Source: a virus (taxonomy: Duplodnaviria; Caudoviricetes). Taken from it: a DNA stretch of 35,709 nucleotides. The translations under genes were made by a program, and so were the position numbers. This document shows positions 17,747-35,650 of this stretch, piece after piece. Under the pieces are notes generated by a model that saw nothing but the letters and a program-made list of their open reading frames with translations, was not told the origin of the DNA and searched no databases. The first letter of the stretch is position 1. Every line of letters begins with the position of its first letter. The DNA is taken from positions 1 through 35,709 of the IMG/VR virus record IMGVR_UViG_3300010383_000020. One strand, 5' to 3'.

Positions 17747-18169
17747 CTACGCCCCGTCCGGGGGCGTCTCCGGCTCAGAGGGCGGGACGTCGGCCGGGCC
17801 GAGGTAGAGGGCGGGGTGGTCGTCGAGGCCCGACTTGTGGCAGACCGCGCAGCACAAGGTCGAGCCGGCCGGGATCGGGCCCCGGGGGTGGACGTCGTCG
17901 CAGGTCAGCAGCGCCAGGGGCGTCGTGCCGACCCCGAACGAGAGCAGCAGGGCCGGGGGGAAGTCCTCCCCGGGCCGGACGACCGGCGGCGGCCCCTCGC
18001 GTTCGATCGCCCCCGAGAGCGCGGCGTGGACCGTCGCCGCCGAGACGCCGCACTCGTCGGCGATCTCGGGGATGGTGAAGCCGAAGCGCCAGCAGGCGAG
18101 CCAGGTGGCCGCCGTATCGGCGTCGATCGCGGGGGTTCGCGCCTGCGTGACAGTCATGGCCCCCATCAT
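17747..18169 (-). CDS. HTH DNA-binding protein with Cys cluster, first gene of the late operon
   Basis: GFTIPEIADECGVSAATVHAAL; C..H...CCAVCH. Confidence 0.7.
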   Translation of the reverse strand: MMGAMTVTQARTPAIDADTAATWLACWRFGFTIPEIADECGVSAATVHAALSGAIEREGPPPVVRPGEDFPPALLLSFGVGTTPLALLTCDDVHPRGPIPAGSTLCCAVCHKSGLDDHPALYLGPADVPPSEPETPPDGA

Positions 18170-18265
18170 ACCAGCGTTTCGCCCCGCCCCCCTCGGCGGG
18201 AGCCCGAATCGGGGCGACCCACGGACGCAAGCCGTTGCCCGCGCCTGGGATCGAGATTCCGAAAA

Positions 18266-18294
18266 AGAATACTATGCTGACACGTTTACGTGAA
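18266..18294 (-). promoter_or_regulatory. Candidate sigma70 promoter of the late operon with overlapping palindrome
   Basis: Minus strand TTCACG-17 nt-TATTCT; palindrome CACGT-TT-ACGTG at 18281-18292. Confidence 0.5.
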
Positions 18295-21082: not shown

Positions 21083-21277
21083 ATGCCGCTCGGACTCTGC
21101 GGCGACGACGCCCGCCGCTATCGCCGCGTCCTCGCGACCCGGGAATACCACCCCGCCTACTCGGCGTTGATGGATCTCATTGCCAGGTCGCAGCAGTACG
21201 GCCAACGCCGAAACGGCCCCGCCGAGAAGGCCCGGACCGCACCGATCGAAAGCCGCACCAGGAGCCCCGCACCGTGA
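21083..21277 (+). CDS. Hypothetical protein
   Basis: ATG 21083, GTGA overlap with the next gene. Confidence 0.5.
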   Translation: MPLGLCGDDARRYRRVLATREYHPAYSALMDLIARSQQYGQRRNGPAEKARTAPIESRTRSPAP

Positions 21278-21564
21278 GCCGCCGACCCGAAACCCTGACG
21301 CTGGGCCCCGCCGCCTACGCGGTCGCCCAGCCCCAAGCCGACCCGTCGGTCGGGGCGGATCTCGCGGTCCGCCGGGCCGTCGCCTCGCTCCCGCAACGCC
21401 ACCAGGCCGCCGTCGGGCTCCACTACGGGTTCGACGGCCCTCCCCTGCCGCTCGAAGGGGTCGCCGCGAGGCTCGACGCGCCGCCCGCGTCCGTCCGCGA
21501 ATGGCTCGACGAGGCGGCCCAGGTCCTACGCCGCAGCCTCGCCGACTACGAACCGAACAGCTGA
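21274..21564 (+). CDS. Sigma-70 region 4-like HTH protein
   Basis: LPQRHQAAVGLHYGFDGPPLPLEGVAARL...VREWLDEAAQVLRR. Confidence 0.8.
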   Translation: MSRRPETLTLGPAAYAVAQPQADPSVGADLAVRRAVASLPQRHQAAVGLHYGFDGPPLPLEGVAARLDAPPASVREWLDEAAQVLRRSLADYEPNS

Positions 21565-30047: not shown

Positions 30048-30141
30048 GTGTGCGCGCGCGTCACACTGGACAACAGTGAGCGGGCGCGGGAAGATGGGTC
30101 GCCCCAGGCGCAAACCTCGGGCCAAACGTTCGAAATGAAAA

Positions 30142-30173
30142 GACCCCGCCGGAGGGCCAACTCCAGCGGGGTC
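30142..30173 (-). terminator. Hairpin in the rep leader (candidate terminator of an antisense RNA)
   Basis: GACCCCGC/GCGGGGTC stem with inner GGAG/CTCC; T-run follows on the minus strand. Confidence 0.5.
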
Positions 30174-30197
30174 GAAAAAGCTTCTGAGGTAGAAGCC

Positions 30198-31067
30198 ATG
30201 ATCGCGCTATGCGCCGAGAAAGTCAAGCCCGCTTTCCCAATCCCATTCCAATTCCGGGCCGAGCCCGTCGGGCTCCGGGAATCCCGGAAGGTCAGCGGGT
30301 CCGCCGTCGCGCTGTTCACCGCGATCCTCGACGACGCCAAGCGTCGGGGCTGGCGATGCCGTCTCAGCAACGCCGCGCTCGCCGAGCGGATCGGCCGGAC
30401 GACGATGACCGTCAAGCGTCTCCTCGCCGAGCTTGAAGCGGCCGACATGGTGGCCCGGGACATGATCGCCGGGGGCCGCGTCCGCCTCGCGATCGTCGTG
30501 ACCTGGGAGGGGGTGGAACATTCCCGCTCCACCGACGTCCGTCCAGTGGAACATCCCCGATCCGGGGGTGGAACATCCCCGACCCAGGGGGTGGAACATT
30601 CCCGTTCCACGATTCAGAGCGTCCCACAGACTCAGATTCAAACCGCCCCGATCCTCCCCCCTCTCGGAGAAGACCCGGAGAGCCAGGTCCCCGACGGGCC
30701 GACGGCCGCGAGGATGCTCCGGGCGATGATCGCCAAGGGACGCGAGCCGGCCGCCCCGGCCGTCGCCACGGCCCCCCCCGCCCCGCCCCCGACGCCGGCC
30801 CCGAAGCCCTCGCCCGCGAAGGCCGCCCCCGTGCCCGAGGACGAAGCGAGGCGGGCCGTCGCGCGGATGGCCGGGGGGGTCTTCAAGGACGCCAGGCGGG
30901 CCGCGTGGGGGCCGCCGCCGGGCCGCCGCCGGATGACGCCCGCCGAGCTTCAAAGGCAGCTGGCCGAGGTCCGCAGGAAGTACGGGTCCTCCTCTCGACG
31001 AATCGCTCAACCGGCCGAGCCGTCGCGCCGATCTATCACCGACGTGGGCGGCGCGTACAGCCGCTAA
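30198..31067 (+). CDS. HTH replication initiator (Rep), putative
   Basis: ATG 30198 after GAGG; wHTH pattern LSNAALAERIGRTTMTVKRLLAELEAADMV; internal iterons; upstream of parAB. Confidence 0.75.
   Translation: MIALCAEKVKPAFPIPFQFRAEPVGLRESRKVSGSAVALFTAILDDAKRRGWRCRLSNAALAERIGRTTMTVKRLLAELEAADMVARDMIAGGRVRLAIVVTWEGVEHSRSTDVRPVEHPRSGGGTSPTQGVEHSRSTIQSVPQTQIQTAPILPPLGEDPESQVPDGPTAARMLRAMIAKGREPAAPAVATAPPAPPPTPAPKPSPAKAAPVPEDEARRAVARMAGGVFKDARRAAWGPPPGRRRMTPAELQRQLAEVRRKYGSSSRRIAQPAEPSRRSITDVGGAYSR
30513..30610 (+). repeat. Four iterons GTGGAACAT(T/C)CCCG inside rep (candidate plasmid origin)
   Basis: Starts 30513, 30546, 30568, 30591 (spacings 33, 22, 23). Confidence 0.85.
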
Positions 31068-31125
31068 ACACGGGTCGGGCCGTCGAGGCCGACCCGGCCC
31101 CCGAACCGGCTGTTTAGCGGCTCAA
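31056..31125. promoter_or_regulatory. Candidate parS: two KorB-operator-like palindromes around a hairpin
   Basis: TACAGCCGCTAAA 31056-31068 and TTTAGCGGCTCAA 31113-31125 versus RK2 OB TTTAGCSGCTAAA. Confidence 0.65.
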
Positions 31126-31152
31126 CTGGTCGCCGAACGGAGGGCGTCGAAC

Positions 31153-31971
31153 GTGATAGTCGTGACTTTGCTGAACCAGAAAGGCGGGGTCGGTAAGACG
31201 TCCTGCACCCACCATCTGTCCGGGGCCCTCGCGGCTTCGGGGAGGCGGGTCCTGATCGTCGACGCCGACCCGCAAGCCAGCCTCACGCAAGGCTGGTGGG
31301 GCCCCGAGGGCCTGGACGCCTTCGCCCCCTCGGAGACCGTGGCCGCGATCCTCGATGGGTCGCTCCCCTCGCCGTCGCGGCTCATCCGCCCGACCGGCCT
31401 GGACGGGCTCGCCATCGTCCCGGGGTCCGAGGCCGCCGCCAGCTTCAACACGCCCGATCCGCATTCGGTCGAACGCGAGCGGCGGGAGTCCATCCGCGAG
31501 TTCCTGGCCGAGGTCCGGGACGACTTCGACGTCACCCTGATCGACTGCCCCCCGAACCTCTACCTATGTTCCTTCGCGGCCCTGGCCGCGTCCGATTACA
31601 TGGTCGTCCCGGTCCAGCCGGAAGACTACGGGGCGCAGGGGATCGCCGCCGTCCATCGGTCCCTCGGGCTGGTCCAGAGCTTCGGGCATCCCGTGCGGCT
31701 TCTCGGCTACCTGCTGACGATGGTCCAGCCTCGCCGGGCCTTGCACCAGGTCTATGAGGCCAACCTCCGGAACGCCTACGGCTCGCAGGTCTTCGAAGCC
31801 CGCTTTCCCGATCTCCCAGACTATCCCGAGTCCATCGCCGCGCGGATGACCATCGGCCAGTACAAGCCGAAGGGGGCCGCGTCGAAGCATGTGAAGGCGA
31901 TCGCCGCCGAACTCATGGAGCGGATCGCGTCGGCGGAGCAGGGGGCTTGCGAAGAGGGGGTGGCCGCGTGA
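31153..31971 (+). CDS. parA: ParA/Soj partition ATPase
   Basis: NQKGGVGKT, VDADPQASLT, IDCPP. Confidence 0.97.
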   Translation: MIVVTLLNQKGGVGKTSCTHHLSGALAASGRRVLIVDADPQASLTQGWWGPEGLDAFAPSETVAAILDGSLPSPSRLIRPTGLDGLAIVPGSEAAASFNTPDPHSVERERRESIREFLAEVRDDFDVTLIDCPPNLYLCSFAALAASDYMVVPVQPEDYGAQGIAAVHRSLGLVQSFGHPVRLLGYLLTMVQPRRALHQVYEANLRNAYGSQVFEARFPDLPDYPESIAARMTIGQYKPKGAASKHVKAIAAELMERIASAEQGACEEGVAA

Positions 31972-32876
31972 GCAAGTTCGACAGGCTTCAAGCGTTCGCC
32001 GGGAACATCAACGCGTCCATCGGCAACCGGCCGGGGGCCCCCGGCCCGAGCGTCGCCCCGGCGGCGGTCCCCGCGAAGGAAGTGGGCGTCTCGCGCTCGC
32101 GGGACGCGATGGAGATCGAAGTGGAGCGGATCATCCCCGACCCCCACCAGCCCCGGAAAGAGTTCGAAGAAGAGCCCCTCGCGCGGCTCGCCGAATCCTT
32201 GAAGGGTAGGGGGCAACTCCAGCCGATCCAGGTCCGATGGAGCGCGGAAGCCGAGCGTTATATCGTCCTGACGGGCGAGCGTCGGTGGCGGGCGGCCCAG
32301 CTCGCGGGCCTCGCCAAGCTCCGATGCATCGTCCGCCCGGACGACGCCGACGCGTCCGACCGGCTCGTCGACCAGCTCGTCGAGAACTGCCTGCGCGAAG
32401 ACCTGACGCCGATGGAGCAGGCGAGGGCCTATCGGACGCTGATGGACGCCAAGGGATGGTCCGTCCGCCAGTTGGCCGAGGAACTGGCCATCTCCCCCGG
32501 CCGCGTGTCCCAGATGACCGCGTTGCTCTCGCTCCCCGAGCCGGTGCAGGCCCGGGTCGATCAGGGCGAATTGTCTTCGACCGCCGCCTATGAAATCTCG
32601 CGGCTCGACGACCCGGCCGCGCAAATCCGCCTCGCGGAGACGGCCGCCGAACAGAAGCTCACACGCGAGGACGTCGCCAAGCAAACCCGCCGGCCGCCGT
32701 CGAAGCGGAAGGCGTCCGCGAAGCTTCCCACGACGGCCGTTTTGCGGCTAAACGGATGCCGCATCGAGATCACCCGCAAGACGGGACTCGACCCGGCCGT
32801 CGTCTACGCCGCGTTGCTGGAGGCCGCCGAGAAGTATCGGCCGGAGCCGCTTTCGGCCGAGCAAGAGGCCGCCTGA
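31968..32876 (+). CDS. parB: ParB/Spo0J partition protein
   Basis: GTG 31968; QPRKEF, GQLQPI, GERRWRAA, ENCLREDL, HTH. Confidence 0.96.
   Translation: MSKFDRLQAFAGNINASIGNRPGAPGPSVAPAAVPAKEVGVSRSRDAMEIEVERIIPDPHQPRKEFEEEPLARLAESLKGRGQLQPIQVRWSAEAERYIVLTGERRWRAAQLAGLAKLRCIVRPDDADASDRLVDQLVENCLREDLTPMEQARAYRTLMDAKGWSVRQLAEELAISPGRVSQMTALLSLPEPVQARVDQGELSSTAAYEISRLDDPAAQIRLAETAAEQKLTREDVAKQTRRPPSKRKASAKLPTTAVLRLNGCRIEITRKTGLDPAVVYAALLEAAEKYRPEPLSAEQEAA
32740..32752. promoter_or_regulatory. Third parS-like palindrome inside parB
   Basis: TTTTGCGGCTAAA, one mismatch to TTTAGCGGCTAAA. Confidence 0.5.
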
Positions 32877-32900: not shown

Positions 32901-33245
32901 ATGCCCCGGAAAGAGCCTCGCCCGCCTCGTCGCGAGATGTGGCCGCCGCGTCTTGAAACGGACCTGCTCCTCGTCTTCAAGGACGGCCCGAATCACGGGC
33001 TCATCCTTTCGGGCGAGGCGGTCTTGACGCTGCTGAACATCTCCGACAACGGCTATCTCCCGCCCATCGGGCACCGGGGCGTGATGAGGCCCGCGTGGTT
33101 CCAGTTCGGCGAACGCGAGTCGAGCCCTGAACGCGTGGCCGCCGCCTGGGAGCGGATCGGCCAGCCGGATCCTCCCAAGGTCGTGTATGAGGTCGAGTCG
33201 ACCGAGGACGACATCATCGTTTTCGCCTACAAGGGAGAGGCTTGA
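32901..33245 (+). CDS. Hypothetical protein
   Basis: AAGGAG SD, 114 aa. Confidence 0.65.
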   Translation: MPRKEPRPPRREMWPPRLETDLLLVFKDGPNHGLILSGEAVLTLLNISDNGYLPPIGHRGVMRPAWFQFGERESSPERVAAAWERIGQPDPPKVVYEVESTEDDIIVFAYKGEA

Positions 33246-33267
33246 CCGGGCTGCCTGAAACTCGAAA

Positions 33268-33300
33268 CGGCCCCGGCCCCGAAACACGGGGACGGGGCCG
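33268..33300. terminator. GC hairpin after the par operon
   Basis: CGGCCCCG/CGGGGCCG outer stem with inner CCCCG/CGGGG; no clear U-tract. Confidence 0.45.
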
Positions 33301-33575
33301 AGACGGACGGAGCAATTGGTAAAATCGGCCGCGCAGGAGAAATGCGCCTATCGTTACGATCTGCACAGCCAAAAAATCGCCGGACGGCCTAAACCGAATC
33401 CGCAACAGGGGCGATGTTGGTAAAGTAAGAGGTATGCCTCACACCCATATGACTCTGGCAACCCCGGCCTGACTGGACCTGCCCAGCGATCGCAGAATCT
33501 CGCCAGTTCTCGGCCCGGCACGATTGACCGCACGGACGAACATCAATTCGACGGACGCAGGCGAGGTTCCGGCCG

Positions 33576-34136
33576 ATGAGCGCTACATCCACCGAAGAGC
33601 AGGGGTGGCCCCCTTTCACCTATCAGGGGGCCACCTACGATCTTGCCCACCTTGAACCCTTCCCCCTCCTGTACACCACCTCGACGGATGGCGTCGAACT
33701 GACGCGGAACATCCTGGTCGAATTCACGGACCACTGTTTTACGGACAAGTTCGGCGACGGCGACGATCCGGATTTGCTCTACGTGGCGCGCGAGGGCAGG
33801 AAAGAGGGGAGCCGGTTCTGTTTCGACAGGTACAAGCTCTCGCTGACCCTCAGCGGGCACTTGAAGGCGATGGTGGACGGGAATGTCTACCAAGTCGAAT
33901 CCGACAGATACGCCGTCTTCCGAGACATCGTGCACGGCGGAAAGCAGGGGTTTTACGCCATCTACTTCACGATGGACAGGTGGTCGCGAGGCTACCACTT
34001 GAAGATGCGGGTACGAAGCGCGTTCGCCCGTCCGGACCGCCCGTACGACTACGGGAAAGTCCGCTTCAAGAATCTGGTCGACCTCAGGCTAAAAGGCGTT
34101 CACCCGAAGAAGATCCAAAGCCGGAAGCGGCGATGA
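33576..34136 (+). CDS. Accessory protein, putative BECR/RelE-like RNase toxin
   Basis: Less GC-rich, aromatic-rich: YDLAHL, FTDHCFT, RFCFDRYKLS, C-terminal MRVRSAF strand; fold call is inference. Confidence 0.55.
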   Translation: MSATSTEEQGWPPFTYQGATYDLAHLEPFPLLYTTSTDGVELTRNILVEFTDHCFTDKFGDGDDPDLLYVAREGRKEGSRFCFDRYKLSLTLSGHLKAMVDGNVYQVESDRYAVFRDIVHGGKQGFYAIYFTMDRWSRGYHLKMRVRSAFARPDRPYDYGKVRFKNLVDLRLKGVHPKKIQSRKRR

Positions 34137-34144
34137 CTTCGGGC

Positions 34145-34172
34145 AAAAAAAATAGGCCCCGAAGGGCCTATT
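34145..34172 (-). terminator. Intrinsic terminator on the minus strand
   Basis: AATAGGCCC-UUCG-GGGCCTATT running into a T-tract (A8 on plus, 34145-34152). Confidence 0.85.
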
Positions 34173-34437
34173 GAACGCTCCGTGGAGCGTCATGGGGCGA
34201 ACCTCTTCACCCGCCTCGCGGCAGGGTATCCGACCCGTTCGGGTCGAACTCGGCTTTGGGGCCGAGCGGGGCTGGCTATGCTCACGCCCTTATGTCCAGC
34301 GCTGTGGGCATCTTAACCCTGATAGGGTCGCCTGGGAAGTCCCAAGCCGGCCCTTTTCTTCCGTATTAAGGTCGTCGTTCGGGGCGAGACTCCTTTAATC
34401 ACCATACGAACGGCGGAAGAAATCCCGAACTCCCACC
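34145..34437 (-). ncRNA. Candidate highly structured ncRNA (~290 nt)
   Basis: At least 7 contiguous hairpins, possible pseudoknot, own terminator, CATAAT -10 at 34444-34449 (minus); no credible ORF. Confidence 0.6.
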
Positions 34438-34543
34438 AAGGAGATTATGGTTCCGTTTTCGCCGTCTGGACTTCGGTCGAGGCGGTTTGAATGACGTGAT
34501 TCGCGGCGGCGGATCACAAGCCCGCATGCAGAAAAGGAGTTCG

Positions 34544-34574
34544 GTCGCCCCCTTTCGGGGGCGTGGATTGAAAC
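34544..34574 (+). CRISPR. Solitary type I-C-like CRISPR repeat (no array, no cas genes)
   Basis: GTCGCCCCCTTTCGGGGGCGTGGATTGAAAC: GTCGC start, 7-bp stem, GTGGATTGAAAC end. Confidence 0.85.
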
Positions 34575-34602
34575 CACGGACATAATATCCCTTATCGGAC
34601 GC
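34575..34602 (-). other. XerC/XerD dif-like recombination site
   Basis: Minus strand GCGTCCGATAA-GGGATA-TTATGTCCGTG versus E. coli dif GGTGCGCATAA-TGTATA-TTATGTTAAAT; outer XerD arm degenerate. Confidence 0.7.
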
Positions 34603-34607
34603 GGGAA

Positions 34608-34976
34608 TCAGCCGGGCAGGGGGGCGACCCCGGGCCCGATGTTCGCCAGCTCGCAGTGCGAGTAGACGTAGAAGACGCCCCCGAGCGACCCGTCCGGCTT
34701 GAGGAATCGCACGGTCGCCGCCGTCGCCGGGTCGGCCGCGACCGCCTCGGGGATCGCGAACGCCTGGCAACCCGGCGAGGCGATCCCGAGGGGCGTCTCT
34801 CCCCGCCGGGCGTGGCGGGTGGCGTCGAAGACGGTCGACCATGCGCCGGTCGCGTGGTCGAAGTAGCGGGCCGCCGCGAGCGACCCGTCCGGGCGGACCG
34901 TCGAGCGGTGATACACGATCGCCAGGGGCGATTCCGAGGCGGCCCACAACGCGCGGGAAGAATAGCGGACGCTCAA
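34608..34976 (-). CDS. Hypothetical protein, last gene of the late operon
   Basis: TTG 34976 after AAAGGAG, TTGA overlap; PDGSL occurs twice. Confidence 0.65.
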   Translation of the reverse strand: MSVRYSSRALWAASESPLAIVYHRSTVRPDGSLAAARYFDHATGAWSTVFDATRHARRGETPLGIASPGCQAFAIPEAVAADPATAATVRFLKPDGSLGGVFYVYSHCELANIGPGVAPLPG

Positions 34977-35650
34977 GCGCAGGCTCCTTTGATCAGCAGT
35001 TCGCGGCGATCGCCCGCCGCCGTCGCGAGCCTCGCCCGGCGGGCGAGCCGCCACCCCCTCTCCCTCTCCGCGTCGTAGGCCCGGGGCGGGGTCCGCCCCG
35101 CCGGCCGGACGCGGACGCGGGGCTCGGCGTGGCCCCGCCTGGCGACCTTGCGGCCGAAGTCCTCGGCGTAGTCGGCCCCGAGCCGAGCGGCGACCGCCCC
35201 CCGGGCCTCGGCCGTTCGGCGCAGGGCCCAATGGACCCCCCGGCCGGCCGCCGCCCCCAGCTCGGCCGCCGTCGAGCCGTCGCGATACGCGCCGACCAAC
35301 AGCGCCGTGTCGAGCGGGCCCAGCGACTCGACGGCGAGGCGGACGTCGAGGGCTTCGGACGGGTCGAGGGCGGGCCGGTCGGCCCGCCACGCCGCCGCCT
35401 CCATCGCCGCCGCCTCGCGGGCCCGCTCGGCCGTCGCCCGGGCCCACGCGTCGGCGAACGCCTGCCGCGCGACGGAGACGACCAGCCCGGGCCCCGCCGG
35501 CCGGCCGCCGAGGCGTCGATGGAGCGACAACGCCGCCTCTTGCGCCAGGTCGTCCGCCTCGCACAGCGGGTCGCGGGGCCGGGCCCGGGCGAACGCCCCC
35601 GCCATGCGGCGGACGAGCCGCCGGCCCTCGTCGGACGCCGGGTCGATCAT
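34973..35650 (-). CDS. ECF/sigma70-like protein (regions 2 and 4)
   Basis: EADDLAQEAALSL (region 2); LGPLDTALLVGAYRDGSTAAELGAAAG (region 4). Confidence 0.65.
   Translation of the reverse strand: MIDPASDEGRRLVRRMAGAFARARPRDPLCEADDLAQEAALSLHRRLGGRPAGPGLVVSVARQAFADAWARATAERAREAAAMEAAAWRADRPALDPSEALDVRLAVESLGPLDTALLVGAYRDGSTAAELGAAAGRGVHWALRRTAEARGAVAARLGADYAEDFGRKVARRGHAEPRVRVRPAGRTPPRAYDAERERGWRLARRARLATAAGDRRELLIKGACA

Follow-up and report, generated by a model that had tools for sequence, protein, structure and literature searches.

The window analysed here is a single viral contig of 35,709 nt whose ends share a 55-nt direct terminal repeat, and whose completeness CheckV nevertheless estimates at 66%. 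We scanned its 78 open reading frames with Pfam and PHROGs. Genes for an HK97-type head, a tail and a terminase lie on the minus strand. The plus strand encodes a primase as well as a Rep-like helix-turn-helix (HTH) protein, ParA and ParB, the last three forming a plasmid-type maintenance module (30048..32876, plus strand). Three further ORFs gave weak sigma-70 region or HTH matches (34973-35650, which belongs to the last minus-strand operon, 21274-21564 and 17747-18169). None of the 78 ORFs belongs to a cas family, and six-frame searches that detected their positive controls gave no match in the contig to Cas1, Cas5d or Cas7, in agreement with an earlier sequence-only reading of this DNA, which had seen no cas gene. 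Searches of the same kind found no tyrosine integrase or recombinase, serine recombinase or resolvase in the element. The top plasmid matches of ParA (48-51%) are plasmids of Singulisphaera, Isosphaeraceae EP7 and SH-PL62, and those ParB matches that bear names come from Paludisphaera/Isosphaeraceae. Since the ParA/ParB matches point to this family, we infer that the element is a phage-plasmid with an Isosphaeraceae host. Four of four Isosphaeraceae genomes described in PMC5352709 carry 1-5 CRISPR loci, their subtype not being given; our literature search on Planctomycetes with type I-C systems returned nothing relevant. Among viral contigs the terminase query found no close relatives, and the ParB alignment recovered two distant phages. 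No RNA run was listed among the sequencing runs that hold the element. One DNA sequencing run contained contigs resembling the rep/par genes and 34680-34989; it left 33056-34679 uncovered and is hence uninformative on the CRISPR repeat.

This repeat, a solitary type I-C unit of 31 nt, lies at 34544..34574 on the plus strand and was recognized by its fold, its likeness to array repeats and its presence in a published table of solitary repeat units (SRUs). An intact 7-bp stem (34546-34552/34557-34563) closes a 4-nt loop, with a folding energy of the hairpin of -15.5 kcal/mol, and the repeat ends in an 11-nt tail (34564-34574), which corresponds to the 5' handle that Cas5c/Cas5d leave according to bioRxiv 2024.12.27.630466. 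The single 31-nt repeat with intact hairpin and canonical 3' end that had been read from the letters was thus recovered, and both the processing stem and the handle, which an RNA anti-CRISPR (Racr) should retain, are undamaged. Identity is 28/31 to the repeat that an array in L248 contains in 31 copies, and 93.8% to a database repeat in the published table, where SRUs are expected to reach at least 90% to a known CRISPR repeat. The claim that there is no second copy also held, as the second-best 31-nt match within the window reaches only 20/31. Partial copies within 100 nt on either side were not significant (p 0.08 and 0.13). We also looked for a second repeat or mini-array and found none; a nearby UUCG hairpin resembles a decayed repeat at p 0.08 only. 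The unit is intergenic, is not accompanied by another repeat, whole or partial, within 100 bp, and passed the SRUFinder filter per the published table. The mobile element on which it resides has no cas genes, as far as a contig of 66% estimated completeness tells.

A chance origin of the word was ruled out, since no repeat-shaped word arose when the window was simulated 300 times with a second-order Markov model; the 12-nt tail alone, allowing two mismatches, is not significant, while the whole 31-nt word is. The repeat is also the top Rfam match in 33200-34700 (CRISPR-DR9, E 0.021, below gathering), and at the gathering score Rfam has no match in the window. The loop sequence occurs in none of the other viral repeats. 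An identical sequence at 34543-34574 is listed as an I-C SRU in supplement file 3 of PMC10651486 (row 1830 of 2,194). The proposal that the repeat is a candidate Racr is therefore sound as far as it goes, but it is already catalogued as such and is not a new discovery, and its status is that of a candidate only.

The first base 3' of the repeat is the start of a 28-bp dif-type site with an 11-6-11 layout (34575..34602), so that the two features abut with zero gap. With a profile built from 62 fetched sites, this site ranks top in the window at 27.0 bits against 10.2 for the next, and the closest of the sites in related replicons is that of Paludisphaera borealis pPALBO1 (24/28 identical). The runner-up (18255-18282, minus strand, 10.2 bits), intergenic between the late and early gene blocks, is probably a chance match or an operator. 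The same 11-nt right arm is found in pSINAC02 and in 57 viral loci with a GC content of 0.28-0.69; in these 57 viral contigs (L006-L062) one 11-nt arm of the dif-type site is invariant, being fixed by the search pattern. Of these 57, the 19 records of high GC content contained no close ParA. We also scanned eight related replicons, five in full (pSINAC02, pPL62-3, pPL17-1, G022 and G023) and three in part (the first 50 kb each of pSINAC01 and pEP7_02, and 3 kb of pPALBO1). Seven of these carry a dif-type site, four of the seven having been in the profile training set, and pPL17-1 has none; the site of G022 is degenerate, and the profile scan gave one strong site for each dif-bearing replicon. 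The window's site likewise combines the 28-bp layout and the conserved inner arm bases with a single strong copy. Since a circular replicon without its own recombinase must resolve its dimers, 34575-34602 is likely the replicon's own XerCD dimer-resolution (dif) site. This function is deduced from likeness, because Kono et al. 2011 (PMC3025954) could not predict a dif in the Planctomycetes; Isosphaeraceae plasmids do carry dif-type sites, although none had been predicted for the phylum.

The sequence-only reading had taken the dif-like site for the spacer part of a processed RNA. This is literally true of its position, whereas the site is best read as the replicon's DNA site and not as a guide, because related replicons carry one without any repeat. 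We infer that this sequence has a role of its own as DNA and that, as RNA, it would be non-targeting filler. The idea that the unit is a one-repeat mini-array, whose processed RNA would direct the host Cascade to the dif sites of rival plasmids or phages, appears unlikely to us. A 28-bp dif does fit one spacer length, the triplet 5' of the element's own dif is the end of the repeat and not a PAM, and dif-type sites are common in viruses. However, dif is most variable just where the seed lies, and the RNA would thus serve poorly as a guide against other replicons: the best seed match among 72 site rows is 5/7, the three rows preceded by TTC match 3-4/7 of the seed, and no near-perfect target exists among 72,556 plasmids.

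Upstream of the repeat, the stretch 34428..34455 (minus strand) may be a decayed, inverted second dif half-site, in which one arm and the core resemble the pPALBO1 site. Its inverted similarity to the downstream 40 nt (p about 0.0025) is suggestive, and its arm alone ranks second, but the case is weak: the whole site scores 1.3 bits (rank 9) and sits in AT-richer DNA, which favours such words. Apart from 34575-34602, this half-site is the only trace of the paired inverted pdif sites of a dif module. A possible second dif 120 nt upstream would suit the proposal that the repeat and dif together let a phage without an integrase enter and leave host CRISPR arrays. The absence of a tyrosine or serine recombinase agrees with this, and a repeat has served as attachment site before, in phiAP1.1, which has its own integrase (bioRxiv 2020.10.09.333658). 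On the other hand, ParA, ParB and Rep already account for maintenance, the second site is as poor as its 1.3 bits, and no integrated copy was seen. XerCD, moreover, needs a dif partner and not a repeat. We consider such an attachment aid improbable; like the guide, it is a weak reading.

Further upstream, at 33576..34136 (plus strand), lies a gene of the YjaZ family (PF27200) with a weak resemblance to the BECR/RelE-like fold. Its match to NF007263 (E 1.9e-9) is below the cut-off, and it is 29% to E. coli YjaZ (E 1e-13); 372 relatives were found. Immediately behind it, a predicted SroH-like antisense RNA (34143..34338, minus strand) would converge on yjaZ, as judged from its fold (z -4.21), a terminator at 34172-34151, a promoter-like site at 34338-34310 (by eye) and the same yjaZ plus convergent RNA layout in E. 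coli K-12. The likeness to the SroH sequence is weak and the Rfam SroH model gave no match for this RNA. The pair (33576-34338) is thus arranged like yjaZ-sroH of E. coli, here in a phage-plasmid that is likely from a Planctomycete; literature searches on yjaZ/sroH offered nothing relevant. Because YjaZ weakly resembles RelE/MuF-C nucleases in structure, it may be toxin-like, and a type III-like toxin-antitoxin pair is possible.

A toxin-like gene 400 nt upstream of the repeat recalls CreTA, and I-C crlRNAs are known (bioRxiv 2024.12.27.630466). The sequence-only reading had accordingly suggested that the repeat couples the toxin-like module to the host Cascade, that is, that a CreA/crlRNA-like RNA represses the yjaZ promoter. 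This did not withstand examination. Of the 902 TTC sites in the window (both strands), none has a long seed match, the best reaching 9/15 scored positions and the best ones lying far from yjaZ; exact matches to the yjaZ module do not exceed 8 nt. There is hence no PAM-flanked partial match to a promoter in cis, and no linkage to a cas operon, inside which the crlRNAs described in bioRxiv 2024.12.27.630466 sit. Because no TTC-PAM target exists, and yjaZ has its own SroH-like RNA, which faces away from the CRISPR repeat, the CreTA-type reading, also weak, is already largely refuted, and we think its chance of being correct is very small.

Two hairpins precede the repeat. The 9-bp hairpin at 34496..34517 contains a G-U pair, and the earlier suggestion that it favours the plus strand is borne out by folding energies of -14.9 kcal/mol on the plus and -7.9 kcal/mol on the minus strand. 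The second, at 34461..34486, has a C(UUCG)G loop and folds at -17.6 (z -3.45) on the plus strand against -8.5 (z -1.41) on the minus strand; it could be part of the same RNA as the repeat, or a weak terminator. The 121 nt that end at the repeat have a folding z of -2.50 on the plus and -0.55 on the minus strand. These two plus-biased hairpins fit a plus-strand transcript. No sigma-70-type promoter was called in 33200-34800, the scan being limited to sites of this type, and, by eye, the first hairpin may stop transcription before the repeat. Downstream, the minus-strand gene block ends in a 122-aa ORF without family match (34608..34976), whose stop is separated from the dif site by 5 nt.

We favour the reading that the repeat was captured at dif and acts as a Racr-type decoy if the plus strand is transcribed, with a probability of about 0.45. 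Recombination with a host array probably placed the repeat at the dif of the phage-plasmid. A plus-strand RNA, if made, would be cut by the host Cas5d, and the cut pieces would tie up host Cas proteins as an RNA anti-CRISPR decoy. The perfect stem with its 11-nt handle and the likeness to array and database repeats given above support a decoy, as do the plus-strand folding bias, the CRISPR loci of Isosphaeraceae genomes and the finding, in PMC10651486, that RacrIC1 and a non-targeting crRNA both reduce interference. Against it stand the lack of a sigma-70-type promoter call, of an acr or defence match and of conservation among the distant relatives, the first hairpin as a possible terminator, the loop sequence that no other viral repeat shares, and the absence of a leader motif or flanking duplication as a trace of capture. 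None of the 30 and 11 small ORFs scanned matched acr or defence families; an acr neighbour is frequent but not obligatory in Racr, and unfamiliar small ORFs may escape detection.

Nearly as likely is a neutral scar: the repeat would have been left by a one-off recombination between array and dif, and would now be silent or serve as an end-of-block hairpin. We find it a tenable though somewhat less probable history that a host array holding a dif-derived spacer recombined with the dif of the replicon. The zero-gap junction agrees with this, arrays do acquire dif spacers, the repeat is missing from all relatives examined, and other lone repeats beside dif are degenerate (22/30 and 25/31 to array repeats). 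On the minus strand, the repeat hairpin reads as a GNRA-type loop 45 nt past the stop of the last gene. However, neither strand of this hairpin drew a terminator call, the handle and stem are undamaged, the two upstream hairpins favour a plus-strand RNA, and the window has no leader and no target duplication (p 0.77).

These last two traces were sought separately. Flanks matching the leader of a host array had been named as grounds against the earlier reading, and no I-C leader match was found: the motif about 177 nt upstream that is present in L065 and L001 is absent in the window. The earlier reading is thus not refuted on this ground, and leader capture was rejected. Spacer-length flanking duplication was likewise rejected for the window (p 0.77); one of 33 solitary units showed it at p<0.01. 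Elsewhere, the solitary repeat of L239 lies between imperfect copies of a 33-nt, spacer-length sequence, with weaker cases in L284, L261 and L258; an element that had entered an array and left it again would be expected to show such a duplication.

To return to capture at dif, on which the decoy reading draws, we scanned for repeat ends with a dif core behind them, once in metagenomes (10 loci) and once in genomes (5 loci). The 15 loci comprise three arrays that contain dif-derived spacers, five lone repeat-like words and seven that look like chance. The three arrays, all among the 10 metagenome matches, are L065 (1208-1237), L068 (2587-2616) and L069 (1224-1252), and the spacer of L065 is leader-proximal, beside cas1/cas2. 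In the two I-C arrays the dif-derived spacer begins 5 nt into the site, directly behind the position at which many viral sites have a TTN triplet, so that the repeat end plus spacer rebuild a full-length dif-like site. The five lone words lie 2-9 nt before a dif-type site, on the minus strand, and are of different types: L063 and L067 (1654-1690 in both) are the same 2.6-kb circular contig, L066 (422-463) is a metagenome contig, and L073 (5001-5044) and L077 (5001-5042) are MAGs. The L063 word is 22/30 to the L069 repeat and the L066 word 25/31 to an I-C repeat. In L073, a Caldilineaceae genome, the hairpin is intact with a weak Rfam CRISPR match, the repeat is single, and the adjoining site is the only palindromic dif-type site of the genome; in L077 only the 3' end of the repeat is present. 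As the scan pattern had a fixed orientation and no control pattern was run on those collections, enrichment of repeats at dif is not proved by these counts.

Besides the window, three or four unrelated replicons thus have a lone repeat next to dif, and arrays contain dif-derived spacers, which hints at an XerCD-linked capture route. dif regions are spacer-acquisition hotspots (PMC8860600), and phages are able to acquire repeat-spacer units (bioRxiv 2020.10.09.333658). It is conceivable, though we hold it rather doubtful, that dif is a doorway for CRISPR repeats into mobile elements, seeding new RNA anti-CRISPRs. An array would first take up dif sequence as a spacer. It would then be joined to the replicon at dif, either by XerCD or by homologous recombination, and resolution would leave one repeat fused to the dif of the replicon; the window's phage-plasmid, L063/L067, L066 and L073 would be products of this route. 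In the literature searched, which left subscription papers mostly outside, we found no description of repeats fused to dif, and this junction is the only fresh element of the solitary repeat.

The junction is not a conserved viral feature, because relatives lack the repeat and the other viral repeats lack dif, a statement limited by the fact that all relatives found are distant. The I-C repeat is absent from two of two related phages and six of six related plasmid stretches (ParA 46-51% where measured). As absence from related elements had been named as a point against the earlier reading, this result counts against it, with the distance of the relatives in mind. In 72 dif rows, a loose match to the repeat end was found within 300 nt in four (L289 once, L058 three times), and by eye none of these contains the repeat stem. 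Conversely, none of 52 other viral loci of the 31-nt I-C shape, 36 of them single by our filter, has a dif core within 300 nt. A viral family with repeat plus dif was also sought, by a loose scan (120 of about 720 loci) and a tighter one (18 loci), and both gave chance-looking matches only. In Chloroflexota, the combination was found in one of 151 family genomes, the already-known L073, and not in the 150 other members; none of 401 genomes of the phylum had it under a pattern whose gap limit is too short even for the known case.

As a Racr candidate, the unit adds little, being one among 2,103 viral SRUs already tabulated. Its value is modest: it offers an I-C candidate that can be tested, in a phage-plasmid likely to come from a Planctomycete, and the way it is joined to dif suggests an origin for solitary repeats, a question left open in the available part of PMC10651486. 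If it is true that dif-derived spacers make arrays XerCD substrates, arrays could also be lost, and repeats passed from one replicon to another, by this route. We further observed that in eight of 33 distinct solitary I-C units, the window among the 33, a ribosome-binding site and start codon follow within 60 nt 3' (L239, L240, L243, L245, L252, L260, L265 and L267), as if such repeats were mRNA processing sites in a 5' leader. In one of these viral contigs (L265, which is L001 1501-1531), a complete I-C leader motif precedes a single repeat and then a gene start.

Finally, we compared the locus with known systems. With E. coli yjaZ-sroH it shares a YjaZ homologue whose gene is directly followed by a structured RNA that converges on it, has a terminator and is about as long, but it differs in the weak sequence likeness of this RNA, the missing Rfam SroH match and the phage-plasmid setting. 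The I-C crlRNAs and CreTA (bioRxiv 2024.12.27.630466) likewise combine a single repeat, a spacer-like stretch, a downstream hairpin and a toxin-like gene nearby; they have, however, a 16-bp PAM-flanked match and lie in cas operons, and the window's unit does neither. The phage phiAP1.1 (bioRxiv 2020.10.09.333658) also carries a repeat sequence and could take up repeat-spacer units, yet it integrates into CRISPR repeats, whereas our element has no integrase and relies on plasmid-type maintenance. The 11-6-11 layout is that of dif/pdif sites (Kono et al. 2011, PMC3025954), and the dif of Geobacter bemidjiensis matches the window's site at 20/28 (minus strand, counted by eye); without a clear second site, this is not a typical dif module. 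The closest parallel to the unit as a whole is with RacrIC1 and the viral SRUs (Camara-Wilpert et al. 2023, PMC10651486), with which it shares a single intergenic I-C repeat on a mobile element that lacks cas genes. That study listed 2,103 viral SRUs, confirmed nine candidates and allowed for other functions. RacrIC1 was experimentally tested and shares a transcript with acrIC5, which it follows by 11 nt, while the window's repeat is a candidate only, has no acr match beside it and abuts a dif-type site, in contrast to the 52 other viral I-C-shaped loci, none of which has a dif core within 300 nt.
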